Below are positions 8,909 to 30,887 of a stretch of 64,000 bases of DNA, in pieces (within the stretch, counting starts at the first letter, position 1; every line of letters begins with the position of its first letter). Source of the DNA: an uncultured bacterium (GTDB taxonomy: Bacteria > Desulfobacterota_D > UBA1144 > Nemesobacterales > UBA2774); NCBI GenBank assembly GCA_963705505.1, contig CAVPJU010000010.1:802017-866016 (forward strand). Reading direction: 5' to 3'. The notes under the pieces were generated by a model. It was not told the origin of the DNA. It worked only from the letters and a program-made list of their open reading frames with translations, and ran no database searches. A program made the position numbers and the translations under genes.

Positions 8909-9662
8909 ATGTCCCAATGTAAAAAGATAACCTTTTCATTATTCGTGGCGGCACTGATATCACTCCAAACTGTCAGCACGGTATTTGCCCAAACTTCCCT
9001 GGACGCCCAGGTTTCGCTCGGTACAATGAAGGTATCGGACGAAGTGAAGGTTACACTCATTGACGGCAGTGAAGTTATGCTAAAGAACGAAAGTTATCCG
9101 ATTTACCCTGATATGATTATAGATACTCTCAATAACGGCAAAGCTACGCTTATAGTCAACGGCGGCAAATACGTGATTGAGCCCAATTCAGTTTTCAAAG
9201 TCCAATCCATAGGGGACGGAATGGCCGGGCTTTTACTCACTCAAGGGCGATCAGGGGGAAGTCTGTTATTGCTTTAATCCGAAAGGCGGTTTCCTTGTAG
9301 ATACGCCCGAGGCCGATACGATTCCTCCGAACGGGAGCGCGGTTAAAACGGGGACACCCCAGTACGTCGACGGCAGGACAAATGTCAAAAATAACATTAC
9401 TTCAGCTATTCAATACGACGGGTACGCCGATTTTAAAACGAATATCAATACTCAAACACTCGAGCCGGGAGACGCCGCTTCAAGTCCTAAGGAACAAAAC
9501 CCATATGATTCATTCGAAAACAAATCCGGATGTTGCACACCTGCTGCAGCTCCCCTACTGATACCGGCGGCGGTCGGCGCGGCTGCAGTTACCGGCGCTG
9601 TCATTTGCGGAGCCGCTTGCGGCAATGATGACGATAGTAACGCCAGCAACGTACTCAGGTAG
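8909..9662 (+). CDS. Exported FecR-like beta-rich protein with hydrophobic Cys-containing C-terminal tail (one frameshift near 9246)
   Basis: Signal peptide. Removing one G at CAAGGGCGA continues the frame: GDQGEVCYCFNPKGGFLVDTPEA...SGCCTPAAAPLLIPAAVGAAAVTGAVICGAACGNDDDSNASNVLR-stop (9662). Confidence 0.6.
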
Positions 9663-9770: not shown

Positions 9771-10772
9771 GTGTATTTGAATAAATTTTTTAAATTCGGA
9801 TTATATTTGCTGGTGCTGGCGAGTGTTCTTTACACATCGTGCGGCGGGGGTTCAAAATCCAGCAGCGAATATACGCTGCCCCAGGCTAAAAGAGACGTTA
9901 ACACGGAGAGTCAGGAGCTCAACCGAAAGCTCATTCAGGAAACGTTCAGTTCAAACGTTGCAGTCGATTATCTCATAGGGCCGGGAGACCTCCTGAGTAT
10001 TCAAGTGCTTGAAGCGCCGGAACTCAATACGGAAGCAAGAGTGAACTCGCAGAACACCATCTCATTCCCGCTTTTGGGGAAGGTCGATATCGGAGGACTT
10101 ACAGCTCAAGAGTCGGAGCAAAAAATCCAGGAGCTTCTGACCGAAAAATATATGAATGATCCCCATGTCGTTGTATCCATAAAGGAGTTCAGGAGTCAAA
10201 GGGTAGCGGTGATAGGCAGTGTGAAAAACCCGGGGACTTATGAGCTTCTGGGTAAGGGAAACCTTCTCGACGCCCTTGCACTGGCAGGCGGATTGTCCGA
10301 AAAAGCCAGTCAGGTCGCGTATGTGTCCCGCAAGAACAAAGAGGGACAGGAAAAATCTGTCCAAATAGATCTCAATGAGCTGCTCGACGAAGGCAAATCG
10401 GATCTGAATATTCCTATTAATATGGGGGACGTCGTTTATATTCCTCAGGCCGGCGTAGTATACGTAGACGGAGCTGTAAACAAACCCGGAACATTCCAAA
10501 TACAGGAAAATATGACCGTCAGCCAGGCACTTACCGCGGCCGGAGGCCTCTCCAAAACGGCAGAGTCATCCGACGTGAGATTAATAAGAAATAAAAAAGG
10601 GCAGATGCAGGTCACTCCGGTGGATCTGGATCAAATAAAAGACGGGCAAACACCGGATATAATTATAGAGGATCAGGATGTAATAGTGGTAGGCAAGAAT
10701 GCAATAAAATCCTTCTTCGATACTATCAAACTTGGATTGTTCTTCCCGCCATTCAGCGTAGGGGTTCAGTAA
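9771..10772 (+). CDS. wza: Polysaccharide export outer-membrane lipoprotein (OPX/Wza)
   Basis: Lipobox YTSC; DYLIGPGDLLSIQV, ISFPLLGKV..GGLT (Poly_export); two SLBB domains. Confidence 0.9.
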   Translation: MYLNKFFKFGLYLLVLASVLYTSCGGGSKSSSEYTLPQAKRDVNTESQELNRKLIQETFSSNVAVDYLIGPGDLLSIQVLEAPELNTEARVNSQNTISFPLLGKVDIGGLTAQESEQKIQELLTEKYMNDPHVVVSIKEFRSQRVAVIGSVKNPGTYELLGKGNLLDALALAGGLSEKASQVAYVSRKNKEGQEKSVQIDLNELLDEGKSDLNIPINMGDVVYIPQAGVVYVDGAVNKPGTFQIQENMTVSQALTAAGGLSKTAESSDVRLIRNKKGQMQVTPVDLDQIKDGQTPDIIIEDQDVIVVGKNAIKSFFDTIKLGLFFPPFSVGVQ

Positions 10773-10803
10773 CACTAAATGAGATCGCAAGAGAAGACAC
10801 AAT

Positions 10804-13170
10804 ATGGAAAATAATAGAGATAATATGATCGGAGATAACAGAGGCAGGAACCTGGTTCCGGAAAATGAGGAGAGAGCACTCCGTACGTATCAACATGCCC
10901 CTGAGACATTAAGGGCTTACCCGGTCGAGGAAGAAAGCAGCATACACCGCTACGTGGAAGTCGTGCTGAGGCGGAAAAAAATTATCATCGCCTTTTTTGC
11001 AATCGTGCTGATATCGACCATGATTGCCACATATTTAACAGAGCCGGAATACAAAGCAACAGCCAAATTGGAAATCTCGCTTGAAAACCCGAAAGTAGTA
11101 AACTTTGACCAGGTGGTCGAACTCGAAACCAAATCCCAAGAGTTTTATGAAACGCAGTATCTGCTCCTTAAAAGCCAGACTCTGGCGAAACAGGTAGTAG
11201 AAAAGCTCAACCTGGCCGAGAACCCGGAATTCAGCGGGAAGAACAAGAAGCCGAGCCTGATCTCAAGGGTAACGTCCAGCATCAAGGGCACGATACGAAG
11301 CACCCTAAGCGGAATAAAAAGGATGATCATCAGGCCGCCCGACATCGTACCCTCGAGCGCCGACGCGGCAATTGCCGAGATCACCAAACAGGACGGACTC
11401 ATAAACGGTTTTATCGGCAGGCTTGAAATATCGCCCGTCGGCAACTCCCGACTCGTCGAAGTAAGCTTCGTATCACACGACCGCAAGCTCGCGGCCGACG
11501 CAGTTAATACATTGAGCGATACATTCATAGACTGGATCCTCAACAGAAAACTGGACGCGACTAAACAGGGAAGGGATTTCCTGAGAAAACAGATAGAGCA
11601 GGCCCAGACAAACCTTGAACAGTCCGAAGAGAAGCTCAATGAATTCGCCAAGAGCAACGATATCGTTTCTCTGGACGAAAAGATGAACATAACTTACCAC
11701 ACGTTCTCAGAACTGAACGACGCCCTGGCGAAAGCGGAGACATCGAGGCTCGAGAAGGAATCGCTTTACAAGCACGTTCAAAACGGAAACATAGGTTCAC
11801 TGCCTTTGGTGGTAAACGACCCGTATATACAGAACCTGAAGGGAGAGCAGGCTAAAGCAAATTCGGAATACAGCCAGATGAGTGCGACTTTCAAACCCGG
11901 CTACCCAAAGGTGAAGGAGCTCGGAGCCAAGGTAGCTGAATTGCAGAGGAAGATCGACGAGGCAGAAAACAGCGTAGCCGCTTCGATCAAATCCGATTAT
12001 GAAGGCGCATTGCAAAAAGAAGAAACTTTAAGAGAAAGCTACCAGAAGCAGAAGACCCTTGCATCCGCACTTAACGATAAATCGATCCAGTACAACATCT
12101 TAAAGAGGGAAGTGGAATCGAATGAAACCATTTATAACACTCTTTTACAAAGATTAAAAGAAACTGAGGTCTCTTCCGCTATCAAAGCAAGCAGCATACA
12201 GGTCGTAGATTATGCTCAAATACCCTTTATGCCGTTTAAACCCAATGTGACTTTGAATCTGCTTTTTGCCTGCATAATCGGGTTAGGCGGAGGAATTTTC
12301 CTGGCCTTTTTCATGGAGTTCTACGACAATACCATAAAGACACCCGAAGAAGTGAGGGACAAGCTGAAACTCCCGGTCCTCGGAGGGGTATTCGAATCGC
12401 ATCAGACGGACGGCTTAGGTTCTCCGGTGGAGAAATCGTTCCTGCTCGACCCGAGATCCCATATTGCCGAATCATTCAGGACGATCAGGACCTCCCTGCT
12501 CCTTTCGACCCCCGGAAAACCGCCCCGCTCGATTCTTATAACGAGCTGCTTCCCGGCGGAAGGAAAAACTACCGTTTCAATCAATCTGGCCTCGTCTTTC
12601 GCGCAGGCCGGAAGCAAAGTCCTTCTTCTCGAGGCCGACCTCAGGCGTCCGAGAATCGGAACGGTTCTGGGGAACAACGGGAACGGCCTCAGCAGTTACC
12701 TGACCGGCAACTCGAATCTCAGCGAGATCATATCTCAGGGGGAGATACCGAACTTATATGTACTCCCCGTCGGTCCGATACCCATCAACCCCGCAGAGCT
12801 TCTGGGCTCAAATCACATGAAAGAGTTACTTCAGACGCTGAGCCAGGAATACGACTACATTATCGTTGACGGTCCCCCTGCATTAGGGTTTGTCGATGCC
12901 CATATCATATCCAGTCTCGTGGACGGAGTCGCAGTAGTCATAAGGGCCGGAAAAACACCCAGGAATTCGATCAGGGAGCTGATAGAGAGACTCTGGAGCC
13001 TAAAATCCAATTTCCTGGGAGTAATTGTCAACGGCATAGAACTCAATCAGAACAGTTACTACTATAAGTCTTACAATTATTACTACGGCGAAGAGGAAGA
13101 AAAGAAAAAGCTCACAGCCGCGACGTCCGACGAGAAAAAAAGGCGGGACGATTTGGGTAAATCTTTATAA
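10804..13170 (+). CDS. wzc: Polysaccharide co-polymerase / tyrosine autokinase (Wzc)
   Basis: Wzz N-terminus, coiled coils, AESFRTIRT, Walker A SCFPAEGKTT, EADLRRP, DGPP, Tyr cluster YYYKSYNYYY. Confidence 0.93.
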   Translation: MENNRDNMIGDNRGRNLVPENEERALRTYQHAPETLRAYPVEEESSIHRYVEVVLRRKKIIIAFFAIVLISTMIATYLTEPEYKATAKLEISLENPKVVNFDQVVELETKSQEFYETQYLLLKSQTLAKQVVEKLNLAENPEFSGKNKKPSLISRVTSSIKGTIRSTLSGIKRMIIRPPDIVPSSADAAIAEITKQDGLINGFIGRLEISPVGNSRLVEVSFVSHDRKLAADAVNTLSDTFIDWILNRKLDATKQGRDFLRKQIEQAQTNLEQSEEKLNEFAKSNDIVSLDEKMNITYHTFSELNDALAKAETSRLEKESLYKHVQNGNIGSLPLVVNDPYIQNLKGEQAKANSEYSQMSATFKPGYPKVKELGAKVAELQRKIDEAENSVAASIKSDYEGALQKEETLRESYQKQKTLASALNDKSIQYNILKREVESNETIYNTLLQRLKETEVSSAIKASSIQVVDYAQIPFMPFKPNVTLNLLFACIIGLGGGIFLAFFMEFYDNTIKTPEEVRDKLKLPVLGGVFESHQTDGLGSPVEKSFLLDPRSHIAESFRTIRTSLLLSTPGKPPRSILITSCFPAEGKTTVSINLASSFAQAGSKVLLLEADLRRPRIGTVLGNNGNGLSSYLTGNSNLSEIISQGEIPNLYVLPVGPIPINPAELLGSNHMKELLQTLSQEYDYIIVDGPPALGFVDAHIISSLVDGVAVVIRAGKTPRNSIRELIERLWSLKSNFLGVIVNGIELNQNSYYYKSYNYYYGEEEEKKKLTAATSDEKKRRDDLGKSL

Positions 13171-13269
13171 GACAATTGAATCTCGGGGATATTCTCCCTT
13201 CGTAACGTATTTTCTTCAGCGATAAATACACTTATCCGTAAATTTTTTCTTAATTCCGCGGCTCGTCAT

Positions 13270-14496
13270 ATGAAATTTACGATAGGCTCGAGGCTTTCCC
13301 TCTATGTATCAATCCTCCTGACGATACTGATATCGTTATTTCTGGCCTGGAATTCGGCGAGGAACTGGCTCGCATACGTTTATGCGAGCGACCCGCCTCC
13401 CGAAGGATTCATGGAAGCTATCTCGATCGAGGGTGGGAATTCGGATTTCTACTTCCTGCTGGGGCAATATTATGATAATTACGACATCTCCGCTCCACGA
13501 GACCGGGTCTATAAACTGTATAGGAGCGCTCTTGAACTTAACCCGTTAAACTACAATTACTGGTACTACCTGGCCGAATTCCTTTCGGAGGAAGGCAAAC
13601 GGGACAAGGCGCTATTTGCCCTTAATCAGGCTACGGAGCTATCCCCCGGCGTCGTTGCACTCAGATGGAGGGCGGGAATGCTTGCCTCGAGGCTTGGAGA
13701 CGAGAAATCTCTCGCGGACAACCTCAGCCCCGTAATGGCCTTTGATCCGGAAAGGCGGAAAAAAGCTTTTATAGTCGTTTGGCAGTCACTCAGGAACGGA
13801 GATAAAATCTTAAAAATCATCCCCGAGATCGCACTCCCCGAATATTTGAATTTCCTCATAGAAACGCGGAGAATACCCGAGGCCCAAAAAGCTTTGGGGA
13901 AATTTTCAAATATCAAAGAAATCCCTGAATCTACATTCCTCAGATACGTAAGCATGTTGATCGATGAGAGCATGATTGAGAGCGCCAAACACACCTGGGT
14001 CAGCAAATTCGGAGACTGGGACGGAATCTGGAACGGTAATTTTGATAAGGGTCTCACGAACGGCGGGTTTGATTGGAATTTCAACGACGCGCAAGGTGCG
14101 AAGATAACAATGGACAATGACACCGGCGGAAAGGGGAACTCAGTCAAGATAGAATTCGACGGAACGAACAACGTGGATTTTTATAATTTCCGGCAACACG
14201 TTCCCGTTGAGGGAAATACACGCTACGAGCTCAGTGCGTTTATGAAAAGTCAGGATTTGTCGACGAGAAACGGCCTCTTTTGGGAAGTATATTGCCCCCG
14301 GAGTAAAGAATTAGACGCAAAAACCGAAGAAGTTCTGGGAACAACGGATTGGCATCCGGTTACCGTTACATTCCAAACACCCGAAGACTGCAATTTCCTC
14401 AGGATAGTACTGCGCCGTTCCAAAAGCGATGAAATACACGGCAATATTTCCGGGACTGTCTGGATCGATGATATAGCTTTGAAGAAAATAAACTAG
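13270..14496 (+). CDS. Membrane-anchored TPR protein with C-terminal carbohydrate-binding (CBM4/9-like) domain
   Basis: N-terminal TM; TPR-like ALELNPLNYNYWYYLA; C-terminal WNGNFD...GFDW...GTTDWHPVTVTFQTP...GTVWIDDIAL. Confidence 0.7.
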   Translation: MKFTIGSRLSLYVSILLTILISLFLAWNSARNWLAYVYASDPPPEGFMEAISIEGGNSDFYFLLGQYYDNYDISAPRDRVYKLYRSALELNPLNYNYWYYLAEFLSEEGKRDKALFALNQATELSPGVVALRWRAGMLASRLGDEKSLADNLSPVMAFDPERRKKAFIVVWQSLRNGDKILKIIPEIALPEYLNFLIETRRIPEAQKALGKFSNIKEIPESTFLRYVSMLIDESMIESAKHTWVSKFGDWDGIWNGNFDKGLTNGGFDWNFNDAQGAKITMDNDTGGKGNSVKIEFDGTNNVDFYNFRQHVPVEGNTRYELSAFMKSQDLSTRNGLFWEVYCPRSKELDAKTEEVLGTTDWHPVTVTFQTPEDCNFLRIVLRRSKSDEIHGNISGTVWIDDIALKKIN

Positions 14497-14512
14497 AACG
14501 ACGTTATCGTAG

Positions 14513-15895
14513 ATGCCCTTTATAAAAGACAAGCTAATACCTCTGATTATCAACGTCGGGATTGTGCTGATTCTAATGTCCCCTTTGCCATACGGTAATG
14601 TGGAGACATGGTCGGTATCCCTGATTGAGATAATCGCATTCCTGACATTCGGGGTCTGGTCGATCGGGGAAATACTTAAAAGACGCATACGTATATTACA
14701 GTCGCCCTTATATCTGCCGATAGCACTCTTTTTCATCGTTATTCTGTTTCAGACAGTGGAGCTTCCGGACTCAATTCTCGATTTCATATCCCCCCATAAG
14801 GCGGAGCTGTTTCAAAACAAGAGCGCAGCGCTCCGGAATATATTCGGCGACGGCATAAAACTCTCAAATTCAATCAGTCTCTACCCGTTCCTGACAAAAG
14901 AAAAATTACTAATATACCTTTCGTACGCCGCATTTTTCCTTATCGTTTCCAACTACATAAAAACAAGCACACAAATAAAGAGATTCATCCGTATTGTCTT
15001 TACAATATCGATCGTGGAATCACTGATCGGACTTCTCCAGTATATCGCCAGCGGGACTAAGGTGCCGGCGTCAGGCACTTACATCAATCCCAACCATTTC
15101 GCGGGACTGCTGATCGTAGTTATCCCTTTATTTTTAGGATACATACTATATCGTGGCACCAATAAAAATGCCGGATCAAACCGGCGGGAAGACAGAATAA
15201 AAATTCTATTTTCCGCTCAATTTCTCCTGCTGTTCGCAACGTCCCTTATGGCTATAAGCTTAATAGTCGCACAATCCCGGGGAGCGATATTCTCGTTTGT
15301 GGTCTCAATTATAATCTTTTATATATTGATCTCCCGCAATAAAAAAAGCGGTTCGATAAAATTATTTCTGGGCATATTTTTTGCGATTGTAATCCTCTAC
15401 TCGATATGGATAGGATTGGACCCGGTAATTGAAAAATTTTCGGATACGACAAAAGAACTCCCTAATCGTACGTACATATGGAAAGATTCGCTTAACCTTA
15501 TAAAAGACTTTCCTATTTTAGGCACAGGTCTAGGGAATTTTAACCTGGCTTACACGCTCTATAAAAAAGAAGCGTTTTGGCCCTATGTCTACGACCACGC
15601 TCATAATGATTATATCGAACTTGCCGCAGAGACCGGGTTGGTAGGATTCATCTTGGTTCTATGGGCATTGGTAGCGTTTTTTAAAACCGCGTTGTCTGAC
15701 GAGAGAAATTTCTCTCCGAACCGGGACCCTCTCAGGTATTATCTCTTCCTGGGGTGCCTGAGCGGGATGCTGGGTATGCTGACTCACGCTATTACAGAAT
15801 TCGATTTCCAAATACCGGCTAATACGTACTACTTCGTATTCTTATTGGGACTGTCGAGCAGCATGTCGAATGTGCTAATCGGAAGGAAGAAATAA
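14513..15895 (+). CDS. O-antigen ligase / Wzy_C family membrane protein
   Basis: SGTYINPNHFAG, SRGA, R..IWKDS...PILGTGLGNF, HAHNDYIELAAETGLVG. Confidence 0.88.
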   Translation: MPFIKDKLIPLIINVGIVLILMSPLPYGNVETWSVSLIEIIAFLTFGVWSIGEILKRRIRILQSPLYLPIALFFIVILFQTVELPDSILDFISPHKAELFQNKSAALRNIFGDGIKLSNSISLYPFLTKEKLLIYLSYAAFFLIVSNYIKTSTQIKRFIRIVFTISIVESLIGLLQYIASGTKVPASGTYINPNHFAGLLIVVIPLFLGYILYRGTNKNAGSNRREDRIKILFSAQFLLLFATSLMAISLIVAQSRGAIFSFVVSIIIFYILISRNKKSGSIKLFLGIFFAIVILYSIWIGLDPVIEKFSDTTKELPNRTYIWKDSLNLIKDFPILGTGLGNFNLAYTLYKKEAFWPYVYDHAHNDYIELAAETGLVGFILVLWALVAFFKTALSDERNFSPNRDPLRYYLFLGCLSGMLGMLTHAITEFDFQIPANTYYFVFLLGLSSSMSNVLIGRKK

Positions 15896-15957: not shown

Positions 15958-17047
15958 CTACGATTTTGTATTTTCGGTCCTTGCCATCGTTTGCCTGTCC
16001 AAACAGTCCTTCAGCGCAAGTTCCGAAATATACCCCATATCGATCAGAATCTGCCCGACTCTTGCCGCCTTGATTTTTTTGACATTGTAATGCCTCTTCC
16101 AGTTGATCGACCGTGATCACGTTGGCGGCGAGCATTATTTCACCCAGCAAGTAATCATTTTTATTGTTTCTGAACGCCCAATTGGCGCTTGAATTCACGA
16201 ATACCTGCAAGTTCAGAAAGTCCTTCAATTTTTGTTCGGTAATATAACCCTTTTCAATCAGAATCTCCCCGACTTTCCCGCCCCATTTCTCCTGATGCTT
16301 AAGCGCTTCCTCAAGCTGCCCTTCGTTAATAACCCCGGATTCCAGTATGACCTGTCCTATCAGCTTATCTATACGCTTTTCCTTGCTGTCCCAATGGAGT
16401 GTGAACGTATACCATATAGAAGCAAAAATAAGCTTTAAATCGAGCCAGAAGCTCTGATTATAGATATAAATCAAATCATAGCGGAGCTTGTTCCTGGGAT
16501 GAGTATTATAATGTCCATGGACCTGGGCAATCCCGGTTAAGCCCGGCTTGACACGGAGCCTGTGATCAAAACCCGGGATCATTTTCCTGAACTCATTAAC
16601 CAATTCCGGCCGTTCGGCTCTGGGGCCGACGAAGCTCATGTCGCCCATAAGGATATTGAATAGTTGAGGAAGTTCGTCGAGCTTCGTTTTTCTGAGGAAT
16701 TTGCCGACTCTCGTGATCCTGTAATCCTTCTTATAAGCCCAGACAGGACCCGTATTGAGCTCCGCATTCTTGATCATGGAACGAAACTTGTAAATCTTAA
16801 ACCTTTTCCCGTTCACACCCAATCTTGTCTGAGAGAAAACTATGGGAACTCCGTCTTCCAGATAAATAGCTACAGCGACCAAAATCCAAACAGGCAAAGA
16901 AACTATGATACCTATAAGGGAAAACAAAACGTCGAAGGGCCTCTTTAAAATTGGCTCTCTTGTAGGGTAGGAATTATAATCCGTCAGCGAATACCTTCCG
17001 CCCAACTTGTTTATGCCGTTGCCGTAGCTTTTGAACATCTTTTCCAA
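15958..17047 (-). CDS. Monotopic priming phosphoglycosyl transferase fused to two MshEN-like domains (one frameshift near 16060-16080)
   Basis: KRPFD...YKFRSM...LRKTKLDELPQLFNILMGDMSFVGPRAERP...KPGLTGIAQV, then LIGQVILESGVINEGQLEEALKHQ-EKWGG-KVGEILIEKGYITEQKLKDFLNLQ. A second pair is completed by removing one base: ...VGQILIDMGYISELALKDCLDRQ...stop 15958. Confidence 0.88.
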
Positions 17048-17525: not shown

Positions 17526-18443
17526 ATGAACCATATCACAAAGAAAGTAAAGAATTACCCGGAGAAAACTGACAAAAAACCCAATATGGGTAATCCCGAG
17601 CGGGACAATGTCGGTTTTTCGAAAATAGAACCCTTTGCAGTACGCGAGCCCAGCGTAGGGGTTTCATTAAGACTTAGAGAGCTCCTGGAATATCACGAGC
17701 TTATTTATTTCCTTGTTTGGCGGGACCTTAAAGTACGGTACAAGCAAACCGCACTGGGTGTGGCCTGGGTAGCTATTCAACCGTTAATGACTATGATTGT
17801 GTTTACCATATTTTTCGGGAATCTCGCAAAAGTCCCTTCCGACGGACTGCCCTACCCTGTTTTTAGCTTTACGGCCCTATTGCCGTGGCAGCTCTTTGCT
17901 AACGCCTTAAACACCTCAAGCAACAGCCTTGTCAATAACCGCGACTTAATAACTAAACTCTATTTCCCCCGGTTAATTATTCCGTTGGCGTCGATAATAG
18001 CGGGATTTGTAGATTTTTGTATCGCATTCCTGGTGCTTATAGCCATGATAATCTATTATGGAATAGTCCCGACATCAGCCGTTTTTACGCTTCCCTTATT
18101 CATACTGTTGACAATCGCGACGTCAACAGCCGTAAGCCTTTGGCTTTCGGCGCTAAATGTAGAATATAGGGACGTACGTTACACAATTCCTTTCCTGACC
18201 CAATTCTGGCTCTTCCTCACGCCTATCGCCTATCCAAGCAATTTAGTGCCCGAGAAATGGCGTATCCTATACGGATTAAACCCGATGGCGGGCGTTGTCG
18301 AGGGTTTCAGGTGGGCTTTACTCGGAAAAACAAACGTTAGCTGGACCATAATTACGGTATCAGTGCTTATAGTTATAATTCTGCTTGTCGGCGGTTTGGT
18401 TTACTTCAGACGCATGGAAAGAACATTCGCGGATATAGTTTAA
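17526..18443 (+). CDS. wzm: Polysaccharide ABC transporter permease (Wzm)
   Basis: WRDLKVRYKQTALG..W..IQPL, LITKLYFPRLIIP, YRDVRY, FLTPIAYP, LNPMAG, ERTFADIV. Confidence 0.93.
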   Translation: MNHITKKVKNYPEKTDKKPNMGNPERDNVGFSKIEPFAVREPSVGVSLRLRELLEYHELIYFLVWRDLKVRYKQTALGVAWVAIQPLMTMIVFTIFFGNLAKVPSDGLPYPVFSFTALLPWQLFANALNTSSNSLVNNRDLITKLYFPRLIIPLASIIAGFVDFCIAFLVLIAMIIYYGIVPTSAVFTLPLFILLTIATSTAVSLWLSALNVEYRDVRYTIPFLTQFWLFLTPIAYPSNLVPEKWRILYGLNPMAGVVEGFRWALLGKTNVSWTIITVSVLIVIILLVGGLVYFRRMERTFADIV

Positions 18444-18444
18444 T

Positions 18445-19809
18445 ATGAACGGAATCGCAATAAAAGTCAGAGATATAGGAAAAGAATACAGGATAGGGGA
18501 GAGAAATGAATTCAGGACTATCCGGGACAGTATTTCAACCTTCGCCACAAAAATTTTCAAAAGACTAATTTCCGGTATTGACGGAAAATCCGTAAGGAAA
18601 AATAATTCCGCGGGTATCGGAGCTCCGCCTTCCGGTGGAAATTATCAATCCGACGTGTCGCAGATCCCGGGTACAACTGACAAGATAAATGATGAAAGAA
18701 CCGATAATTACATATGGTCACTCAGGAAGGTGTCTTTCGATGTCCGAAACGGGGAAATCGTCGGAATAATCGGCCGCAATGGCGCGGGAAAGAGCACGCT
18801 GCTGAAAATTATAGCGGGTATAACCGAACCTACGGAAGGAAGGATAGATATATACGGCAGAATCGCTTCGCTGCTTGAAGTCGGAACAGGATTTCACCTC
18901 GAGCTAACGGGGAGAGAAAATATCTATTTAAACGGGGCGCTGCTTGGAATGAAAAAACGGGAAATAGACCGTAAATTCGATGAGATAGTAGAGTTCTCGG
19001 AAGTTCATCAGTTTATCGACACGCCCGTTAAATTTTACTCCTCGGGCATGCGGGTGCGTCTGGGTTTCTCCGTGGCAGCACACCTCGAGCCCGAGATTCT
19101 GCTAATTGACGAAGCTCTTGCGGTAGGAGACGCAGCGTTCCAGAAAAAGTGTTTGGGCAAGCTGAACAATGTAGCTACCTCGGAAGGAAGGACCGTTATA
19201 TTCGTCAGCCACGACATGGCGGCCATCCTGTCATTATGCCAGAGATCTATTCTATTGGACAGCGGACGAATGATCGCCGAAGGCACCACTCATGAAGTAG
19301 TACAGCAGTACATGCAATCAATGAGTTCAACCTATGAAATCCCGCTTGACCAGAGAATGGATCGGACGGGAGACGGCAGTATCCTCGTTACATCACTTCA
19401 AATAGAGAATTCCGAGGGCAGAATACCTATTACACCGAGCTGTAAACTAAAAATCAAAATCGGTTATCGAAGCGAAAACCAAGTTCGCTTCCCTCAGTTC
19501 GTAGTTAATATTAAAGACTTTAGAACACACACGACTATACTCCGCCTGGATAGCGAAATGCTAAATGGTCTGCCTGAAACTCTTCCTTCCGCGGGAAGTG
19601 TGTCGTGCGTGACTGACAAAATATACCTGTCACCGGGACGATGCTACGTGGATGTCGGTATCAGAAAAGGGAAATCAACCGCCGATTACATTGAACATGC
19701 GGGATACTTCGATATCGAGACAGAAGACCTATACGGATCCGGAAAGATACCGTCACGTGACCAGGCTATATACCTCCTAAAATACAGATGGCTGGTTGAA
19801 AATGTTTAA
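18445..19809 (+). CDS. wzt: Polysaccharide ABC transporter ATPase with C-terminal Wzt_C domain
   Basis: GIIGRNGAGKSTLLK, LTGRENIYLNG, PVKFYSSGMRVRLGF, DEALAVGD. Confidence 0.94.
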   Translation: MNGIAIKVRDIGKEYRIGERNEFRTIRDSISTFATKIFKRLISGIDGKSVRKNNSAGIGAPPSGGNYQSDVSQIPGTTDKINDERTDNYIWSLRKVSFDVRNGEIVGIIGRNGAGKSTLLKIIAGITEPTEGRIDIYGRIASLLEVGTGFHLELTGRENIYLNGALLGMKKREIDRKFDEIVEFSEVHQFIDTPVKFYSSGMRVRLGFSVAAHLEPEILLIDEALAVGDAAFQKKCLGKLNNVATSEGRTVIFVSHDMAAILSLCQRSILLDSGRMIAEGTTHEVVQQYMQSMSSTYEIPLDQRMDRTGDGSILVTSLQIENSEGRIPITPSCKLKIKIGYRSENQVRFPQFVVNIKDFRTHTTILRLDSEMLNGLPETLPSAGSVSCVTDKIYLSPGRCYVDVGIRKGKSTADYIEHAGYFDIETEDLYGSGKIPSRDQAIYLLKYRWLVENV

Positions 19810-19964
19810 ATGATACCATTTAACAAGCGATTGATTGACGTTAACTAGTTGCAACCATTAAAATAAGTCTAAACATACGAGGTGAATTTAATAAAGGGTA
19901 TTTACACACTTTTTAAATTATTATAGATTTGCTTTAGCCAAATCAAAAAGTGAGGCATAAGAAT

Positions 19965-20708
19965 ATGAAGCGTGATCAGGTGTTTATTGAACAAAAGGGA
20001 AACATCAATGATTTTGAGTTCAATGACCAGGTGGTGGAAGTCTTCGATGATATGGTAAACCGGAGCGTTCCATTCTATTCGGAGCAGCAAAGGATGATAA
20101 ATGAAATCGGGAAAGTTTTTTCAACCAGCGGCACAAATATATATGATCTAGGGTGCGCTACAGCTACCACTCTCATTAATCTTTGTCAAGACTCCGACCC
20201 GTCGATCCGCCTGATAGGATTTGACAATTCCAAGCCAATGATTGAGAGGGCTCAACAGAAAATATCAGAGCATGGATATGAGAATCGAATCGAAGTGCGT
20301 TATGGTGACTTCAATGGAGATCTCGACTCTATCGATTTGAATAACGCCAGTCTGGTATTGATGTGCTGGACTCTGCAATTTGTGCGTCCTTTAAGAAGAG
20401 ACAAACTCATTAAAAAAATTTACGATTCACTCAGTAAAGGCGGTGCGTTGCTGATTACTGAAAAAATACTCACAAACCACTCACTCCTAAATCGCTATTT
20501 TATAAAATATTATTATGATTATAAGACGCGAAAAGGATATTCAACAGAAGAAATTGTAAATAAGAGGGAGGCACTGGAAAACATTTTGGTCCCGTATAGA
20601 GTTGAAGAAAATTTCGAATTGTTGAGGCGGAATGGATTCGAAACCGTAGATACTTTTTTTCAATGGTACAATTTTGCCGGATTTATTTGCATTAAAGACC
20701 CGGGTTAG
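19965..20708 (+). CDS. cmoA: Carboxy-S-adenosylmethionine synthase-like protein (CmoA family)
   Basis: DFEFNDQVVEVFDDMVNRSVPFY, YDLGC, DNSKPM, WTLQFVRP..R, YSTEEIVNKREALENILVP, FFQWYNF. Start ATG 19965 after GAGG. Confidence 0.82.
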   Translation: MKRDQVFIEQKGNINDFEFNDQVVEVFDDMVNRSVPFYSEQQRMINEIGKVFSTSGTNIYDLGCATATTLINLCQDSDPSIRLIGFDNSKPMIERAQQKISEHGYENRIEVRYGDFNGDLDSIDLNNASLVLMCWTLQFVRPLRRDKLIKKIYDSLSKGGALLITEKILTNHSLLNRYFIKYYYDYKTRKGYSTEEIVNKREALENILVPYRVEENFELLRRNGFETVDTFFQWYNFAGFICIKDPG

Positions 20709-20728
20709 TCATTTAAATCTACTTACCA

Positions 20729-21487
20729 ATGATTAACGAAAAACCTTTTAATTTGATTACTGGCAATATGAACATTCATACATTAATAAAGCGAATAGCC
20801 ATATATATAAGTGGTTTGATTTGTTACAGATGGGATAGATACTACAAATTACCGAGAAGTCTAAATCCTATAAGTCATAAATTCGGCTTTGACAGAGGAT
20901 TGCCCATCGACCGCTATTATACTGAAAAATTTATACGCGCAAACGCCAATGATATACATGGCCGTGTTCTTGAAATTGGAGACGACTACTACACTAAAAA
21001 GTTCGGAACCGATCTTATTACCAAAAGCGATGTATTGCATGTCGTCGATGGTAATCCTCAGGCAACGATCATCGCTGATTTGACTAAGGCTGATAATATT
21101 CCTTCCGATACCTTTGACTGTATAATATTCACTCAAACCCTTCAAATGATTTATGATACGCACTCCGCTTTAAAAAACCTCCACCGAATATTGAAACCCG
21201 GGGGCGTATTGCTAGTTACTACTCACGGAATATGCAAAGTGGGGAGATGGGAGGGTGAGGACGACTGGGGTAAATACTGGCATTTCACTTCTCAAGCAAT
21301 AAAAAAGATGTTTGATACACACTTCATGACCGGGAACTATAAAATCGAGGTATATGGAAACGTACTCTCCGCGATCTCTTATCTGCACGGACTCTCGTCA
21401 AATGAACTAACAATAAATGAGTTAGATTATTCGGATCGTGAGTATGAGGTTTTAATTGCCGTAAGAGCAGTAAAACCTGCCGTATAA
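20729..21487 (+). CDS. Class I SAM-dependent methyltransferase of a type common in polysaccharide loci
   Basis: FGFDRGLPIDRYY.EKF, GRVLEIGDD.YT, FDCIIFTQTLQMIYD, LHRILKPGGVLLVT. Confidence 0.85.
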   Translation: MINEKPFNLITGNMNIHTLIKRIAIYISGLICYRWDRYYKLPRSLNPISHKFGFDRGLPIDRYYTEKFIRANANDIHGRVLEIGDDYYTKKFGTDLITKSDVLHVVDGNPQATIIADLTKADNIPSDTFDCIIFTQTLQMIYDTHSALKNLHRILKPGGVLLVTTHGICKVGRWEGEDDWGKYWHFTSQAIKKMFDTHFMTGNYKIEVYGNVLSAISYLHGLSSNELTINELDYSDREYEVLIAVRAVKPAV

Positions 21488-21802
21488 ATCAATATTAATA
21501 ATACGATCGAGTAAAAAATGTTAAAACTAAATAACAAGCATCCGATCACACTTCAAAGGAATCATGATAAATTTTCAAAGAAAACTTTTAGAAAGAAATA
21601 AATCGCTATTTCGGAGTTAGATTCAGGAATATCTAGACTAATCTCGCTCCAATGCGATTCTTTAAAGGAGTAATAGCAGATAATCCCAAATAATATAGAG
21701 TTGTAGCCGCTCCGGCCCGAACTATGTAATGTTCGATACTGTGTTATTTTTTTAGCTGGTGTAATATTTATATTCAGACTGTTAGGAGACATGTAAATAC
21801 AA

Positions 21803-22615
21803 ATGAGGCGGAATCCGGATTTTTCCATACCCATTTTAATGTATCATCAGGTAAGCGACGATCCTCATCCAAATTTTCTGAAATTTACTGTGACGACAAA
21901 GGGTTTTGAATCACAGATGAAGACCCTGAAACTCCTCGGCTATAAACCCATAGATTTCAGCCAACTAGCAAGATATAAGGAAGGAAAGGACCGACTGCCA
22001 AAAAGACCCGTCATAATCACATTTGACGACGGGTTTCAGGAAGCGGTGGATAATGCTGTTCCAATATTAAATTCTTGCGGATTCACTGCGGTGTTTTATA
22101 TCACAACCGATTATATCGGGAAAAAAAGCGGCTGGATGATTCCTGAAACATCAATCGAATTCCAGGTTATAGATTGGCCCACCGTAATTCATTTGGATTC
22201 ACGCGGATATGAAGTCGGAGCTCACAGTATGACGCATCCTCATATGGATGCCATATCGTTGGAAGCCTGCTCAAAAGAGCTCCGCGGATCGAAAGAGGCT
22301 ATTGAAGAAGTTTTGGGCCACGAAGTACGGCACATGGCATACCCTCACGGCTCGTTTAACGACGATGTTTTGAAATTAGCGCACGAAACAGGCTATCAAA
22401 CGTCCTGTTCATGCGAAATCGCCATTGCGCATTCCGGGAATGACCTTCTGGCCCTGCCGAGAGTCAATATCGAGGCCAGTGACTCCTTGATCGATTTTAT
22501 ATTCAAGCTGCACAAGGCCAGAACACCTGACGAAATTATGCTGATCACGATGAATAGCGTGAAAAGCAAGATCCCGGGAAGATTGAGGAGATTTATTAAA
22601 AAATTTGTTAATTGA
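21803..22615 (+). CDS. Polysaccharide deacetylase (CE4/NodB)
   Basis: PILMYHQV, ITFDDGF, GAHSMTHP, AYPHG, LPR. Confidence 0.92.
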   Translation: MRRNPDFSIPILMYHQVSDDPHPNFLKFTVTTKGFESQMKTLKLLGYKPIDFSQLARYKEGKDRLPKRPVIITFDDGFQEAVDNAVPILNSCGFTAVFYITTDYIGKKSGWMIPETSIEFQVIDWPTVIHLDSRGYEVGAHSMTHPHMDAISLEACSKELRGSKEAIEEVLGHEVRHMAYPHGSFNDDVLKLAHETGYQTSCSCEIAIAHSGNDLLALPRVNIEASDSLIDFIFKLHKARTPDEIMLITMNSVKSKIPGRLRRFIKKFVN

Positions 22616-23652
22616 GGCCGTACGGTAACGACAATATTATTATGATCAAAGTGAGTGTAATAATACCCACATACCAAAGAAAACAATCCGTATTACGTCT
22701 TCTCGATGCACTTAGTTCGCAAACTTTTCCGTCAAACGAATTCGAGGTCATAATTTCGATCGACGGTTCGACAGACGGTACGAAGGAAGCGGTCGATAAT
22801 TACAAAACTCCTTTCGAACTAGGGTCTATTTGGGAAAGTAACGCAGGTAAATCGTCTGCATGCAATAAGGGAATTAAAGACGCCCGGGGAGAATTGTTAA
22901 TCATATTGGATGACGACATGGAGCCGTCTCCCGGACTAGTGCAAGCTCATTATACCGCACATCAGGGCCATACGAAAACCGGTGTAATAGGGGCCGCCCC
23001 TATAATAGTAGAAGAAAATTCACCGCTTGTTGTCCGTTATATCGCCGATAAGTTCAATTCTCATATAAAAAAAATATCAGAACCGGGTTTTAACCTAAGG
23101 ATTTGGGACTTTTACGGCGGGAATTTCTCTATAAGAAGAAAGCTCATGCTGGACGTCGGTCTATTTGACGAAAACTTTAAAGTTTACGGGTACGAGGACG
23201 TCGAGCTCGTAAACCGGCTGCTAAAGGCGGGTGTAAAAATAATATTCAGCCCGGATGCTTTATGCGTTCAGCATTATGAGGATGATCTCAAAGGCCAGGG
23301 GTACAAAACAATCAATTCGGGGAACAATGCTGTTCAACTAGTCAGTTCTCAACCGGAGACATTTACTGAACTCAAGCTCACCGAATATAACTTAACGGGA
23401 TGGAAGTGGCGCTCACTTCGTCTAACTTTAATATGGTTCAGTATCTTGATCCCCGTTACTACGGACATAGTAATCTCTTTAATTAACCTGTTTGAGAAAT
23501 CAAACCCGAAGATGCATAGGAGGCTTTATTCCTTAGCCATGGATTACTTCTTTTGGCTCGGGGTGTGGACAGCTTTGAGACGTGATAAAAACAAGCAACT
23601 CCGCTCCAAAATAAAATCCTTCAAGAAACCCCAAAAATGTCCAACACCGTAG
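22612..23652 (+). CDS. Glycosyltransferase family 2
   Basis: VSVIIPTY, DGSTDGT, LDDD, GLFDENF..YGYED. True start probably ATG 22642. Confidence 0.9.
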   Translation: MRPYGNDNIIMIKVSVIIPTYQRKQSVLRLLDALSSQTFPSNEFEVIISIDGSTDGTKEAVDNYKTPFELGSIWESNAGKSSACNKGIKDARGELLIILDDDMEPSPGLVQAHYTAHQGHTKTGVIGAAPIIVEENSPLVVRYIADKFNSHIKKISEPGFNLRIWDFYGGNFSIRRKLMLDVGLFDENFKVYGYEDVELVNRLLKAGVKIIFSPDALCVQHYEDDLKGQGYKTINSGNNAVQLVSSQPETFTELKLTEYNLTGWKWRSLRLTLIWFSILIPVTTDIVISLINLFEKSNPKMHRRLYSLAMDYFFWLGVWTALRRDKNKQLRSKIKSFKKPQKCPTP

Positions 23653-24773
23653 TTTACTATATAGACAGCAATAATTTCGGCGGCGCGGAACAGGTGTTAC
23701 TCAACCTCGTGAGTAAACTCGACCGAAATTCGTGGCGCCCGATCCTCGCATATCACCAGAGCCCCGGCATTTCCTCGTTTGTAGCAGCCGTAGAAAACCT
23801 GGACGTGGATACCATTTCTATGCCTGAGATTCGGAGCTATAAAGATATCAGGAACATTCTACAATTCGCAAAGAAACTGAAAACCATACGTCCCGCTATC
23901 TTTCATGCAAATCTAAGCTGGCCGCTTTCATGTTCTTATGGCATTATCGCCGCATACCTGGCCGGGGTTAAGACTATTTTAGCCACCCAGCACCTCTATT
24001 CGGATATGAACTCTCGACGGAGCCAACTAGAACAAAAGCTAATATCCTATTTCGTGGACAACTATATTGCGGTATCATTCGATGTAGCCAGACAGCTCAA
24101 AGAAATAATCACTTCCGAAAATAAAGTAAAAGTTGTGCACAACGGAATCATATTGGGAAATTACAGTCACGTAGCAAATAACACACCCGATAGCGACGTT
24201 TACAGCTCCGTGAAGATGAATAGAAATAATTTTCCGATCGTGCTTACCGTAGCACGTCTCGACAAGCAAAAGGGGCACACCTATTTACTTCAAGCCGCGA
24301 GTGATATCCCGGGGACGCTTTTTGTATTCGCCGGGGACGGTCCCGAGAGGGCGAATCTCGAAAATGAGGCGCGTGAGCTGAGTTTGACGGACAGAGTCAT
24401 TTTTTTAGGAAATAGGAACGACATCCCTGCATTGCTGCGCGGATGCGATTTGTTTGTACTCCCGTCTCTCTTCGAGGGATTGCCCCTTTCCATTATTGAA
24501 GCCATGGCGGCAGGCAAACCTGTCATAGCCTCCGATATCAGGGGAGTAGACGAACTGGTAATAAATGGCAAAACAGGATACCTGGCGCCCCCGGGAGACC
24601 CTACTGCTTTAGCGGCCGCGATAAAAACCATCGTGTCGAATCCCCAATTGTCTCAAAAAATCGCATCAGCGGGAAAAACCATGGTATTCAGTGAATTCTC
24701 CGCCGATCAAATGTTAAAAGGCATAACTGAAATATACAATGACAATCTATCCCGCAGAGGATTAATAAATTAA
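23637..24773 (+). CDS. Glycosyltransferase family 4
   Basis: GGAE, VARLDKQKGH, PSLFEGLPLSIIEAMAAGKPV. Confidence 0.92.
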   Translation: MSNTVVYYIDSNNFGGAEQVLLNLVSKLDRNSWRPILAYHQSPGISSFVAAVENLDVDTISMPEIRSYKDIRNILQFAKKLKTIRPAIFHANLSWPLSCSYGIIAAYLAGVKTILATQHLYSDMNSRRSQLEQKLISYFVDNYIAVSFDVARQLKEIITSENKVKVVHNGIILGNYSHVANNTPDSDVYSSVKMNRNNFPIVLTVARLDKQKGHTYLLQAASDIPGTLFVFAGDGPERANLENEARELSLTDRVIFLGNRNDIPALLRGCDLFVLPSLFEGLPLSIIEAMAAGKPVIASDIRGVDELVINGKTGYLAPPGDPTALAAAIKTIVSNPQLSQKIASAGKTMVFSEFSADQMLKGITEIYNDNLSRRGLIN

Positions 24774-24913
24774 GCAAATGGGAAATCACAGAATTACCGA
24801 AGAGCCCATTAATATCATCATAAGCTCGGGCTCACCCTGCTTCGTCGATCGATTGGAGCAGGGCAAATCAAACCTTTTTCTTACAGTTCTTCGTATGAAA
24901 TACGAATAAGGGA

Positions 24914-26167
24914 TTGGCGATAACAATGCGCATCCTCTTTATCTCAAGCTACTTCCCCGACGACATACGTACAAAGGCTCACGGCGTCTATAAGCGGATG
25001 GGGATGTTTATAGAGGCTATAAAAGAAATAGCCTCACTGGATATGCTCTTTTATACACGTCAGGATACGCATTACTCGCCCATACAGACGTCCGAGACGG
25101 AACGTTCGTTAAGCGAACACTGGAAAACGGATATCAGGCTGTCACTCTCGCCCATGGCGGAATACAGGAATCGAACCAAATCCGAAAAACTGACGTCCTT
25201 CGGAAAAGGCATCTTCAGTATTTTCAATCAGCATGGTTACTACGAGCTTAGCGGAGCTGAGCAGGTGCGGGCCCTTGAAGAGTGCCTCGACAGAAGGCCT
25301 GATGCGATCTTCGCACACCGGCTGCCCTCGATGTGCCCTCTGCTGCTCACGAGGAAACCCCTCCCTCCGATTTTTTTCGACTTCGACGATATTGAGCATA
25401 TAGTACAGTTAAGACACATCAAACAACTAAAAAGACTCCGGTCAAAGCTCTTATATCTGCTCATTCCTGCTCTGCGTTCGGGTGAAATGGATGCAGTAAG
25501 ATTAGCCACAGAGACATACGTTTGCTCCGAAAAAGACCGCGCATACCTGGAAAATAAGTTCAACCAGTCCCGTGTAATTACAGTCCCGAATACGGTATCG
25601 ATTCCGGCGTTACAGCCCCCCGCAAATGAAAAGACTCTACTTTTCATCGGTTCTTATTATACGGCCAATCTGCACGCCATAGATTTTCTCGTTAAAAAGA
25701 TCTGGCCTTACGTACATCGGGAAGTCCCGGACGCAAAGCTGATTATTGCCGGAATACCCGCTGATAAGCTCGACATAGATGTCTCCGGAGCACCGGATAT
25801 AGAAATCACCGGATTCGTGGACGACCTGGACGGGCTCTACGGAAGATCCCGCATTATTACCACTCCAATATTCGTCGGAGGCGGCACGCGGATAAAGATC
25901 ATCGAAGCCGCGGCTTACGGGAAGCCGGTAGTATCTAGCACGATAGGAATGGAAGGGATCGATTTGTCCCCCGGAACAGAAATTCTGATACATGACAATC
26001 CGAAAGAATTTGCAGAAGAGTGTGTAAAATTGCTTCGAGACCCCGAATTGTGTAAGGAAATAGGATCGGCGGCAAGGTCAAAAGCCAGACTCCTCTATGA
26101 CAGCAACTCAGTCCTCAAGTTAGTCAGAGACCGTATAATGCATAACATGAAAATATCTGCATCATAA
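24914..26167 (+). CDS. Glycosyltransferase family 4-like (GT-B)
   Basis: TGFVDDL, GGGTRIKIIEAAAYGKPVVSSTIGMEGI. Confidence 0.88.
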   Translation: MAITMRILFISSYFPDDIRTKAHGVYKRMGMFIEAIKEIASLDMLFYTRQDTHYSPIQTSETERSLSEHWKTDIRLSLSPMAEYRNRTKSEKLTSFGKGIFSIFNQHGYYELSGAEQVRALEECLDRRPDAIFAHRLPSMCPLLLTRKPLPPIFFDFDDIEHIVQLRHIKQLKRLRSKLLYLLIPALRSGEMDAVRLATETYVCSEKDRAYLENKFNQSRVITVPNTVSIPALQPPANEKTLLFIGSYYTANLHAIDFLVKKIWPYVHREVPDAKLIIAGIPADKLDIDVSGAPDIEITGFVDDLDGLYGRSRIITTPIFVGGGTRIKIIEAAAYGKPVVSSTIGMEGIDLSPGTEILIHDNPKEFAEECVKLLRDPELCKEIGSAARSKARLLYDSNSVLKLVRDRIMHNMKISAS

Positions 26168-26193
26168 AACATCATTCCGATGTATAATTTTAA

Positions 26194-27118
26194 ATGATGT
26201 CGCAAGTAAGCGTTATTATTCCAACTTATAACAGAGTGAAATTACTCAATAATTCAGTCGCGAGTGTGCTTTCCCAGACTTATCGGGATTTTGAGCTGCT
26301 GGTGATAGACGACTGTTCCACAGACAATACTTCCGATTTTCTTTCCAATATCGCTGACAAAAGAGTACGCTGCATAAAAAATACCTCGAATAAAGGAATT
26401 ACCGCGACAAGGAATATTGCTCTGTCCAATGCAAACGGGAAATACATCGCATTTCTCGACGACGATGATGAATGGATGCCGGACAAGCTGGAAAAACAGA
26501 TAAATTTAATGGAAAACAGTTCTAAGGGTCTCGGCTGCATATATACCGGATGCAATCTCGTCGACGCGGAAGATAATAGATTCAATCAAACAACTGTACC
26601 ACACTATAGAATAAGGATTTTGAATGAATTACTCTTGGAGAATTTCATTATCACTTCCTCGACTCTTATAAAGGCAGACTGTTTCGAAACAGTCGGGATG
26701 TTCGATGAAAGCATGCCGTTCGCCGAGGATTATGACATGTGGATACGAATAGCTCAGGAGTTCGAATTCGATTTCGTCAGATCACCTTTGGTAAATTACC
26801 GCATTCATCGAAATTCGATCAGTTTCAACAATAATGCGATAATAATCGGATTAGAGCGATTACTCACAAAACACGAAAAGCTATTCCTGAAAAACAAAAA
26901 GGCTTATAGTAATCACCTGCTTAGAATCGGTGTCGCATATTGCTATACTGGGAATACCAGAGAAGGCAGGAAAGCGCTTATGAAGTGCATTGGAATATTA
27001 TAAATTCGACAAAAGAGTTTATTATAATCTCCTGCTGACAATCCTTGGTGCGGACATCTTCAAAAAGCTAAAGGAGTTGAAAAAGCAGTATTTCCCTATA
27101 CGTATAAAAACCGGATAA
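26194..27118 (+). CDS. Glycosyltransferase family 2 (one frameshift near 26992)
   Basis: VSVIIPTYNR, DDCSTD, YIAFLDDDDEW.PDKLEKQ, EDYDMWIR. Removing one G extends the frame to ...YYNLLLTILGADIFKKLK...TG-stop 27118. Confidence 0.88.
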
Positions 27119-27179
27119 GCGGGAGGCAACGAAGTGCGGATTCTATAAAATACAGTCCGCGACTTAGGATCAGAGCGCA

Positions 27180-28595
27180 ATGCAGAGATTAAACTTCGCC
27201 GATATAAATATCCAACACATTCTGATATTCTCCGCAATAATACTCGGTGCGATCCTGGGTATTTATATAGGATATAACGGGGCTTCCAAGCTAATAATAG
27301 GAGGGTTATTAGGGGCTATATTTTTTGTTCTGAGCATTATGAGGCCGTGGATAGCAGTAGCGGCCTTCTTCGCATTAATACCTCTCGAAAACCTGTTCGT
27401 GCTGCAGGGCAGTTTGACGGCGACGCTATCCAAGCTGATGGGCGCTTATTTGATCTTTCTTGTGATCATTACAGGGTCACTAAAATATATACACGAAGTT
27501 TTTATAAATAAAAAGGTTTTGGTGCTGGTACTATACGGCGCCCTGGGAATAATTTCGGTCGCCGTATCCAAGCACAAAGATTACGGCATCCCGCTCTTAA
27601 TAACTCTATGGCTGTATATATTCCTATATTTCGTTTTTATAATCATGATAAGGGACATTAAGACGTTATATTATGCAACCTGGGCCTTGCTGGCGGGAGG
27701 AATAATTTCAATAATCAGCCCATACTTTTTCGGATTTGGGAGTGTCGGGGGCTACGAATTAAAACGCTATGGAGGGCTATGGGGAGACCAGAACGAGTTC
27801 GCAGCTCTGCTGCTCGTATTGATTCCACTTTCCATCATGAACTTCTTTATGGACCAGAAGTTAATTTACAAAGTAATCTCGGCAATTACTTCACTCATAC
27901 TTCTGACTGGTCTAATACTAACGTATTCGAGGGGTGGATTCATATCTCTGTTCCTCATGCTTGTACTAGCAATGTTTAAAATAGTAAGTGGGAAAAACAG
28001 GACTAAGATTCTTGCAATATCCGTTCCCTGTATCATCGTAGCTTTTATAATTTTTTATTACGCCTTTGCCGATCAGTTCCTTGCCAGAATGGAAACGCTG
28101 AGTGTATTGTCAAGCAGTGAATCGGCACAAACGGAAGGCTCGCTGAAGCAGAGATATTTCTACTACTTCCAATTAGCCCCGAAACTCTTTATGCAGCACC
28201 CTGTTTTCGGAGTCGGATTTAGGGAGTTCGTGTTTAGCAACCCTTACGGGCAGGTAACACATAATACTTATTTAGAGGTATTGGTAGGAATGGGTGTAAT
28301 AGGATTCATACCTTTCGTAGCCATATTATTTCTTTCATGGAAAGACCTGAGAAGCGCTCAGAAGTTCAATAACAACAATCCGTTTGTCCATTCTTATGCA
28401 GTTGCGCTTGAGATAGGATTCCTGGGTTATCTTTTCGCCAGTATGTTCCTTACGCTGGACTTAAATAAGGTGCTTTGGATGTCGATCGCTCTTACATCAG
28501 TAGTTCTTAATTTAAGCAGGATTTATAGTGGGACTCAGACTACGAATAAAGTCACTAATCGCAACTACAAGACATTAGGAGTAACATACTACTAG
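27180..28595 (+). CDS. O-antigen ligase / Wzy-like polymerase
   Basis: Multi-TM; RYGGLWGDQNEFA, TYSRGG, HPVFGVG, THNTYLEVLVGMGVIG. Confidence 0.85.
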   Translation: MQRLNFADINIQHILIFSAIILGAILGIYIGYNGASKLIIGGLLGAIFFVLSIMRPWIAVAAFFALIPLENLFVLQGSLTATLSKLMGAYLIFLVIITGSLKYIHEVFINKKVLVLVLYGALGIISVAVSKHKDYGIPLLITLWLYIFLYFVFIIMIRDIKTLYYATWALLAGGIISIISPYFFGFGSVGGYELKRYGGLWGDQNEFAALLLVLIPLSIMNFFMDQKLIYKVISAITSLILLTGLILTYSRGGFISLFLMLVLAMFKIVSGKNRTKILAISVPCIIVAFIIFYYAFADQFLARMETLSVLSSSESAQTEGSLKQRYFYYFQLAPKLFMQHPVFGVGFREFVFSNPYGQVTHNTYLEVLVGMGVIGFIPFVAILFLSWKDLRSAQKFNNNNPFVHSYAVALEIGFLGYLFASMFLTLDLNKVLWMSIALTSVVLNLSRIYSGTQTTNKVTNRNYKTLGVTYY

Positions 28596-28725
28596 ACGGT
28601 CGGGAAGACATAGCAGCGGCATTCCTCGCTCAAGAGTGTGAATATCGGTCTAAAGCAAACACATTATCCGATGAGAATTCAAATTATCCGGCCAGACTGA
28701 TAAGTACACATCGGGGAAAAAACAT

Positions 28726-29910: not shown

Positions 29911-29932
29911 GTTTATTAGTACAACATTATAT

Positions 29933-30871: not shown

Positions 30872-30887
30872 TCTTAGACAGAACGAT

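Follow-up and report, generated by a model that had tools for sequence, protein, structure and literature searches.

Priming phosphoglycosyl transferases (PGTs) draw on a limited pool of carrier lipid that is shared with the cell wall. Direct control by c-di-GMP has been described for synthase-dependent polysaccharides; for priming PGTs, the cases set out in the same account involve phosphorylation and a response regulator only, with EpsW proposed to activate the priming PGT EpsZ post-translationally in Myxococcus xanthus (PMC12802240). The Escherichia coli GT2 enzyme NfrB carries an MshEN domain that is required for its function (PMC8669469), and Supplementary Table 4 of Wang et al. includes MshEN fusions to GT2 enzymes and kinases and none to a PGT (PMC5013675). 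Our literature search found no PGT-MshEN fusion, although the monoPGT network survey of O'Toole (2021) or domain databases could list one.

A PGT of this kind is encoded in the 64,000-nucleotide stretch of DNA from an uncultured bacterium that was analysed here (the window). PGT-MshEN_N is a real, conserved architecture of known parts and is apparently undescribed. Sequence comparisons suggest, as the best explanation overall, that c-di-GMP would directly control priming via the fused tail, to which we assign a probability of about 0.55.

The PGT gene and its locus

The gene lies between a convergent block and a divergent block of polysaccharide genes. The convergent block and, on the other side, wzm-wzt form the conserved flanks of a PGT slot. 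The features are as follows:

9771..15895 (+): convergent export block, with a Wza-type OPX protein, a Wzc tyrosine kinase/co-polymerase, a TPR and CBM protein, and a Wzy_C (O-antigen-ligase-like) protein
15958..17038 (-): PGT-(MshEN_N)2 gene, 359 aa when intact
17047 (-): alternative TTG start of the same gene
16403..16945 (-): monotopic PGT catalytic domain PF02397 (profile match)
16684-16664 (-): Asp-Glu dyad in KLDELPQ
16205..16363 (-): MshEN_N unit 1, with motif LIG...Q, a 5-aa spacer and motif KVG...Q
16151..16204 (-): 18-aa inter-unit linker, the least conserved part of the protein (48% mean identity, against 66-78% for the domains)
15991..16150 (-): MshEN_N unit 2, with LLG...Q (16150-16079), a spacer and RVG...Q (16062-15991, other frame)
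17526..32959 (+): divergent block, with a Wzm/Wzt ABC exporter, two methyltransferases, a polysaccharide deacetylase, five GT2 and three GT4 glycosyltransferases, and a second Wzy_C protein

The catalytic core matches Bac_transf (PF02397) over residues 35-215 with an E-value of 2.3e-65, and it aligns to Campylobacter PglC (8e37; E 1.9e-35) with the LDELPQ dyad intact; the complete PglC-type monotopic PGT core with KLDELPQ that had been read from the sequence is thus borne out. DELPQ is present in 28/28 monotopic clusters, a set that was selected that way. From the family, the intact dyad and the genomic context, we infer that this PGT primes synthesis of the surface polysaccharide whose genes flank it, transferring sugar-1-phosphate to undecaprenyl phosphate.

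The open reading frame from 17047/17038 to 15896 (-) holds the PF02397 domain and three in-frame 24-residue motifs. The frame of the PGT core continues through unit 1 (16363-16205) and the opening motif of unit 2 (16150-16079); the fourth motif, RVGQILIDMGYISELALKDCLDRQ at 16062-15991, is read in an adjacent frame that reaches a stop at 15958. What breaks the frame in the assembly is a single surplus base near 16062-16064. Contigs from two other runs, X2 (1411 bp, 50 differences) and X3 (278 bp, 2 differences), are each one base shorter at 16062 or 16064; runs X1 and X4 give no coverage of the indel. P0379, which is identical to the window protein at 325/326 residues up to the break, is intact at 359 aa and reads on past the break as GGRVGQ (motif 4 begins RVG). 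In the 90% cluster, five of six proteins have the full 359 aa, the exception being the window contig's own product. An assembly error is almost certainly the cause of the frameshift, given the intact near-identical relatives and the contigs of two other runs that are without the extra base. A private mutation of the window strain is possible, while programmed frameshifting and a true pseudogene are unlikely, near-identical relatives being intact. The sequence-only reading had already recognized a 1-nt frameshift hiding the last repeat, and its coordinates for both 24+5+24 units were all exact.

Several other genes of the window are of note. A frameshift-split gene of no known family (8847-9659, +) is conserved in relatives at 255-273 aa, always upstream of wza. 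A conserved 428-aa gene without a clear family (7277-8563, +) stands upstream of the polysaccharide genes in every long syntenic locus and has a weak Xre/MbcA-like C-terminal match. Genes for a CBM96 protein and GHL15-like proteins, apparently in pieces (33070-35032 and 40034-41423, -), adjoin the glycan locus, and the EF-G gene (62604-64000, -) is spread over several frames, as assembly indels in this essential gene would explain.

Elsewhere the genome encodes one more monotopic PGT and a single PF00953 gene, which has an FMGDVGS motif and is probably mraY. There are five GGDEF domains (three of the four inspected read GGEEF, GGDEF or SGDEF), two HD-GYP domains and an MshEN-bearing PilB; no EAL domain was matched in this 94%-complete genome. 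GGDEF genes are found in 45/61 relatives with or without the fusion, and their co-occurrence with it is therefore weak evidence. A promoter/terminator scan was uninformative (9 found, against a mean of 4.8). Read by eye, MshEN-like units are also present on a protein with a receiver-like C-terminus (G000:C6:174159) and on a protein with J-domain/TPR-like features (G000:C3:256635).

A double MshEN_N domain at the C-terminus

Two 53-residue units (24+5+24), both with complete motif pairs, follow the PGT core. The NCBIfam profile NF053729 (c-di-GMP motif) scores 111.5 bits against a cut-off of 38, in two stretches, on the intact ortholog P0003, and 65.3 bits on unit 1 of the window protein. In a PDB sequence search, all 14 matches at E<=10 are MshE, PilF or PilB, among them PilF (E 1.9e-14) and MshE (5htl; E 1.5e-7). 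An AF2 model of unit 1 (pLDDT 88) shows the four-helix fold, with 5HTL as the top match in both Foldseek and VIA. This match has a TM score of 0.81 and an rmsd of 1.4 with an E-value of only 5e-3, and a Z score of 10.2 with an rmsd of 2.1 over 58 residues, which does not reach the value of about 13 that is the VIA warning level for helical bundles; such modest statistics are expected because the unit has only about 60 residues. A full-length AF2 model from a 20-sequence alignment (mean pLDDT 54, pTM 0.36) was not used for domain contacts.

The tail is a double MshEN_N domain, as proposed from the sequence. The HMMER search suggested at that stage, with Bac_transf and a T2SSE_N/MshEN profile, succeeded for the former, whereas Pfam PF05157 has no match on the tail even at E<=10 and it was NF053729 that found it. 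The alpha/beta subdomain MshEN_C is absent: there is no PF05157 match, and the chain ends about 10 aa past unit 2. DUF4388 and FumaraseC_C were discarded as identities of the tail, their Pfam scores being sub-threshold. A six-frame scan of the 2.88 Mb genome gives five matches to the 24-residue pattern, four here and one in PilB, and three shuffles give 0, 0 and 0; this shows rarity only, since the pattern was written after the motifs had been seen.

The same tail on two unrelated PGT folds

Of 54 candidates, 25 proteins matched with the tail as query: 20 have PF02397 and five have PF00953. One of them is labelled Candidatus Dadabacteria by its source, and on this label the family of the window bacterium is probably Dadabacteria. 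Tail matches are present in 16/61 related genomes, 14 of which belong to the family of the window bacterium (14/33). Nine of these have the monotopic fusion (G000, G009, G011, G012, G013, G017, G021, G027 and G029), and five have a WecA-type polytopic fusion of 491-500 aa (G003, G004, G007, G020 and G023). Both flanks of one slot are seen in 13 of the 14 fusion genomes, the short contig of G021 showing the Wzy_C side only; G013 has two extra genes ahead of wzm.

The polytopic query matches monotopic genomes through the tail only, with the exception of one chimeric contig in G009, a 7%-contaminated and indel-rich genome. In this contig (L143; G009:C16; 6909-7648) a monotopic N-terminus runs into a polytopic C-terminus and the tail; the contig is probably a mis-assembly formed from a mixture of strains, possibly a relic of recombination, and was left out of all counts and trees.

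Across the slot, the DNA of G007 (polytopic) and G009 (monotopic) is 82% identical over 8.6 kb of one flank and 84% over 4.0 kb of the other, falling to 68% in the tail. In the Wzc tree (12 rows) the two fusion types interleave with strong support and three changes are needed, and a clade of polytopic hosts is rejected by the AU test (p 3.6e-5); three changes are likewise needed on the Wzm tree. The eight polytopic tails form one clade in the tail tree (27 rows; 98/98), and in a quick tree the 19 fused polytopic domains are separated by a fully supported branch from 20 unfused relatives, which were hand-chosen from the matches. All of these trees are midpoint-rooted. These comparisons are most simply read as a single fusion, after which whole genes were repeatedly exchanged at the slot; alternatively, the ancestor may have had two genes that were then lost reciprocally. 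The monotopic fusion appears to be older than the polytopic one, judging from its wider spread and from unfused relatives, the best of which are 60-63% identical and some of which are labelled Alphaproteobacteria or Micavibrio.

The polytopic allele scores 128.4 bits with PF00953 (against 27) and retains the DD, NLIDGLDG and HFHH motifs; its TIGR02380 score is below the cut-off. The Mg-binding Asp of its FxGDxGS site, which aligns to the FMGDVGS motif of MraY, is Asn in 19/19 fused polytopic clusters (FLGNSGS in P0022 and 18 relatives), whereas Asp is kept in 97/102 further matches; Asn is fixed only in the MshEN-fused clade. We take Asp252 of DPAGT1 to be the equivalent residue. The Asp of this type of site is essential in MraY (PMC6606608), and in DPAGT1 the Asp252Asn change raises activity 5-fold (PMC6218659). 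In the WecA-type allele, a change from Asp to Asn that raises activity may go together with an acquired switch.

Other arrangements are also seen. Monotopic PGTs of a sister family have one unit (G044, G059) or two (G056, G066), and a single protein of G052 (L139:8150-10177) combines a WecB UDP-GlcNAc 2-epimerase, a monotopic PGT and MshEN_N. P0040, which is probably an independent fusion, has an MshEN-like N-terminus with a longer spacer, a VanZ-like membrane domain and a monotopic PGT; P0243 is a WecG/TagA-family glycosyltransferase (PF03808) with C-terminal MshEN-like repeats, and L162-L164 encode MshEN proteins without a PGT. Full-length matches are confined to the window bacterium's family and the sister family among the 120 genomes of the phylum searched. 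In a HMMER scan of 50% representatives, P0027, P0033 and P0040 carry MshEN units among the best 150, but as the catalytic domain dominates, this is no measure of spread outside the lineage. A contig scan, from which 80 of 117 loci were kept, contains one full ortholog, the rest being essentially catalytic domain only.

The presence of the same tail at the same locus on an unrelated enzyme of the same predicted reaction suggests that c-di-GMP may control the first step of the pathway, and the catalytic-domain swap makes c-di-GMP gating more plausible. A broader proposal, which we put forward more tentatively than gating itself, is that a portable double MshEN_N module gates undecaprenyl-linked priming (ABC- or Wzx/Wzy-type), and that the module would stay fixed in the slot while catalytic domains of two non-homologous superfamilies take turns there as long-lived alleles, so that the first sugar would change and the control would not.

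Predicted ligand binding and proposed control of priming

The 188 motif copies examined for conservation come from 47 clusters at 90%, of which 28 are monotopic and 19 polytopic; this set excludes the window protein with its frameshift, P0216, which is truncated, and P0040, which is built differently. The ligand-contact positions Gly3, Leu17, Leu21 and Gln24 (PMC5013675) are conserved in 188/188, 187/188, 184/188 and 188/188 copies, respectively, and are present in all four window motifs. Position 1 is L, K, W, I or R in 180/188 copies, which fits the extended high-affinity consensus, and is L, K, L and R in the window motifs (within R/K/L). The sequence-only reading had cautioned that replacement of the leading Arg might weaken binding, alter its specificity or abolish it. 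The Arg is indeed replaced in three window motifs (L, K, L), but PilF GSPII-B, with Lys/Leu at this position, binds at 6 nM, its K167L variant at 2 nM and K167R at 150 nM (PMC11731258); by this analogy the caution probably points the wrong way.

The real risks to binding are Ile/Val at position 2 and possibly an extended first helix. At position 2, which a Leu occupies in the stacking triad, 52/188 copies have Leu, 105 Ile, 21 Val, 7 Thr and 3 Met, and the window motifs read I, V, L and V. The L10A change costs MshE 36-fold in affinity (PMC5013675), and for L-to-I changes at positions 17 and 21 the loss is only 2.4-fold (PMC12002112). In the ligand-free model of unit 1, a helix of residues 2-17 crosses the start of the first motif, and in PilF GSPII-A a stabilized, capped extension of the helix can prevent binding even where the consensus is good (PMC12002112). 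An ideal N-cap at the PilF-A position is present in 0/47 clusters for unit 1 and 7/47 for unit 2.

The tail could thus have kept the MshEN fold and lost c-di-GMP binding, serving in oligomerization or protein interaction; the substitutions at position 2 and the predicted continuous helix through the site would fit this, and the fold has documented non-binding members. Those members (XpsE and PilF GSPII-A), however, have lost Gly3, position 1 and Gln24 (PMC5013675, PMC12002112), whereas Gly3 and Gln24 are invariant here and unit 1 is without an N-cap, and we regard loss of binding as unlikely. Less probable still is that the ligand is another cyclic dinucleotide such as 3',3'-cGAMP, or that the units differ in ligand: MshEN binds cGAMP weakly (KD 330 uM), and some deviations are conserved and unit-specific (e.g. 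Trp at position 1 in 19/19 polytopic unit-2 second motifs), but selectivity for guanine is conferred by two backbone amides, those of the invariant Gly3 and the next residue (PMC5013675). The motif data point to a double MshEN_N tail that probably binds c-di-GMP.

Binding need not mean direct gating, because c-di-GMP changes the activity of the purified MshE ATPase by less than 10% in vitro (PMC5013675). The tail might instead bind c-di-GMP for docking or localization (with a local diguanylate cyclase, Wzc or downstream glycosyltransferases) or for stability, with catalysis unchanged. Its portability between unrelated folds is compatible with such a role, as are the structural or partner-binding function proposed by the PilF authors for very tight binders (PMC11731258) and the contact of NfrB with a specific diguanylate cyclase. 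NfrB MshEN mutants lose function, however (PMC8669469), and the distance from the core to unit 1 is identical in 28/28 monotopic clusters, which suggests geometric coupling; docking is a serious alternative, though with clearly lower odds than direct control.

If c-di-GMP does control priming directly, the PGT would load sugar-1-phosphate on undecaprenyl phosphate for the flanking polysaccharide locus, and its cytoplasmic C-terminal tail would act as a double MshEN_N receptor with up to two c-di-GMP bound. Binding would directly alter PGT activity, most likely switching it on; activation is the likelier sign of control by analogy with NfrB. Carrier lipid would then be committed to the polysaccharide only at high c-di-GMP. 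The ligand unwinds the first turn of helix 1 in PilF (PMC11731258), and the same movement, here at the joint between receptor and enzyme, is a possible means of coupling. Given that one tail serves two catalytic folds with no relation to each other, the tail would be more likely to act by lifting a steric or oligomeric block than through an allosteric path specific to one fold. With such a putative receptor built into a small PGT, and occurring on both folds, whether c-di-GMP can gate priming becomes a question for a single purified protein, with a control supplied by nature. The tail is also a clear case of a regulatory domain retained across a catalytic swap.

Each part of the protein has a described counterpart. 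The window protein shares with PglC (8E37, 8G1N; PF02397) the catalytic core with its LDELPQ dyad and the N-terminal hydrophobic helix, but has about 140 extra C-terminal residues that form the predicted receptor. With MshE (5HTL) and PilF GSPII-B (8PDK) it shares the 24+5+24 spacing, the four-helix fold and Gly3, Leu17, Leu21 and Gln24, and with PilF GSPII-B also Lys/Leu at position 1; in contrast to both, it has two tandem C-terminal units, no MshEN_C and no ATPase, and position 2 is mostly Ile/Val in the PGT tails. The allele of the sister genomes has the predicted reaction type and the DD, NLIDGLDG and HFHH motifs of WecA-type PGTs (PF00953), to which it adds the double MshEN_N tail and Asn in place of the FxGDxGS Asp. 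NfrB resembles the window protein as a polysaccharide enzyme carrying an MshEN receptor, in both cases C-terminal (PMC8669469), but it is a processive GT2 synthase, whereas the window protein, with its two MshEN_N units, is predicted to prime a lipid-carrier pathway (Wzm/Wzt, Wza/Wzc). In the EpsZ-EpsW system post-translational control is likewise proposed at the priming PGT, a large monoPGT, but through a separate phosphorylated response regulator (PMC12802240), whereas in the window protein a putative second-messenger receptor is fused to the enzyme itself.
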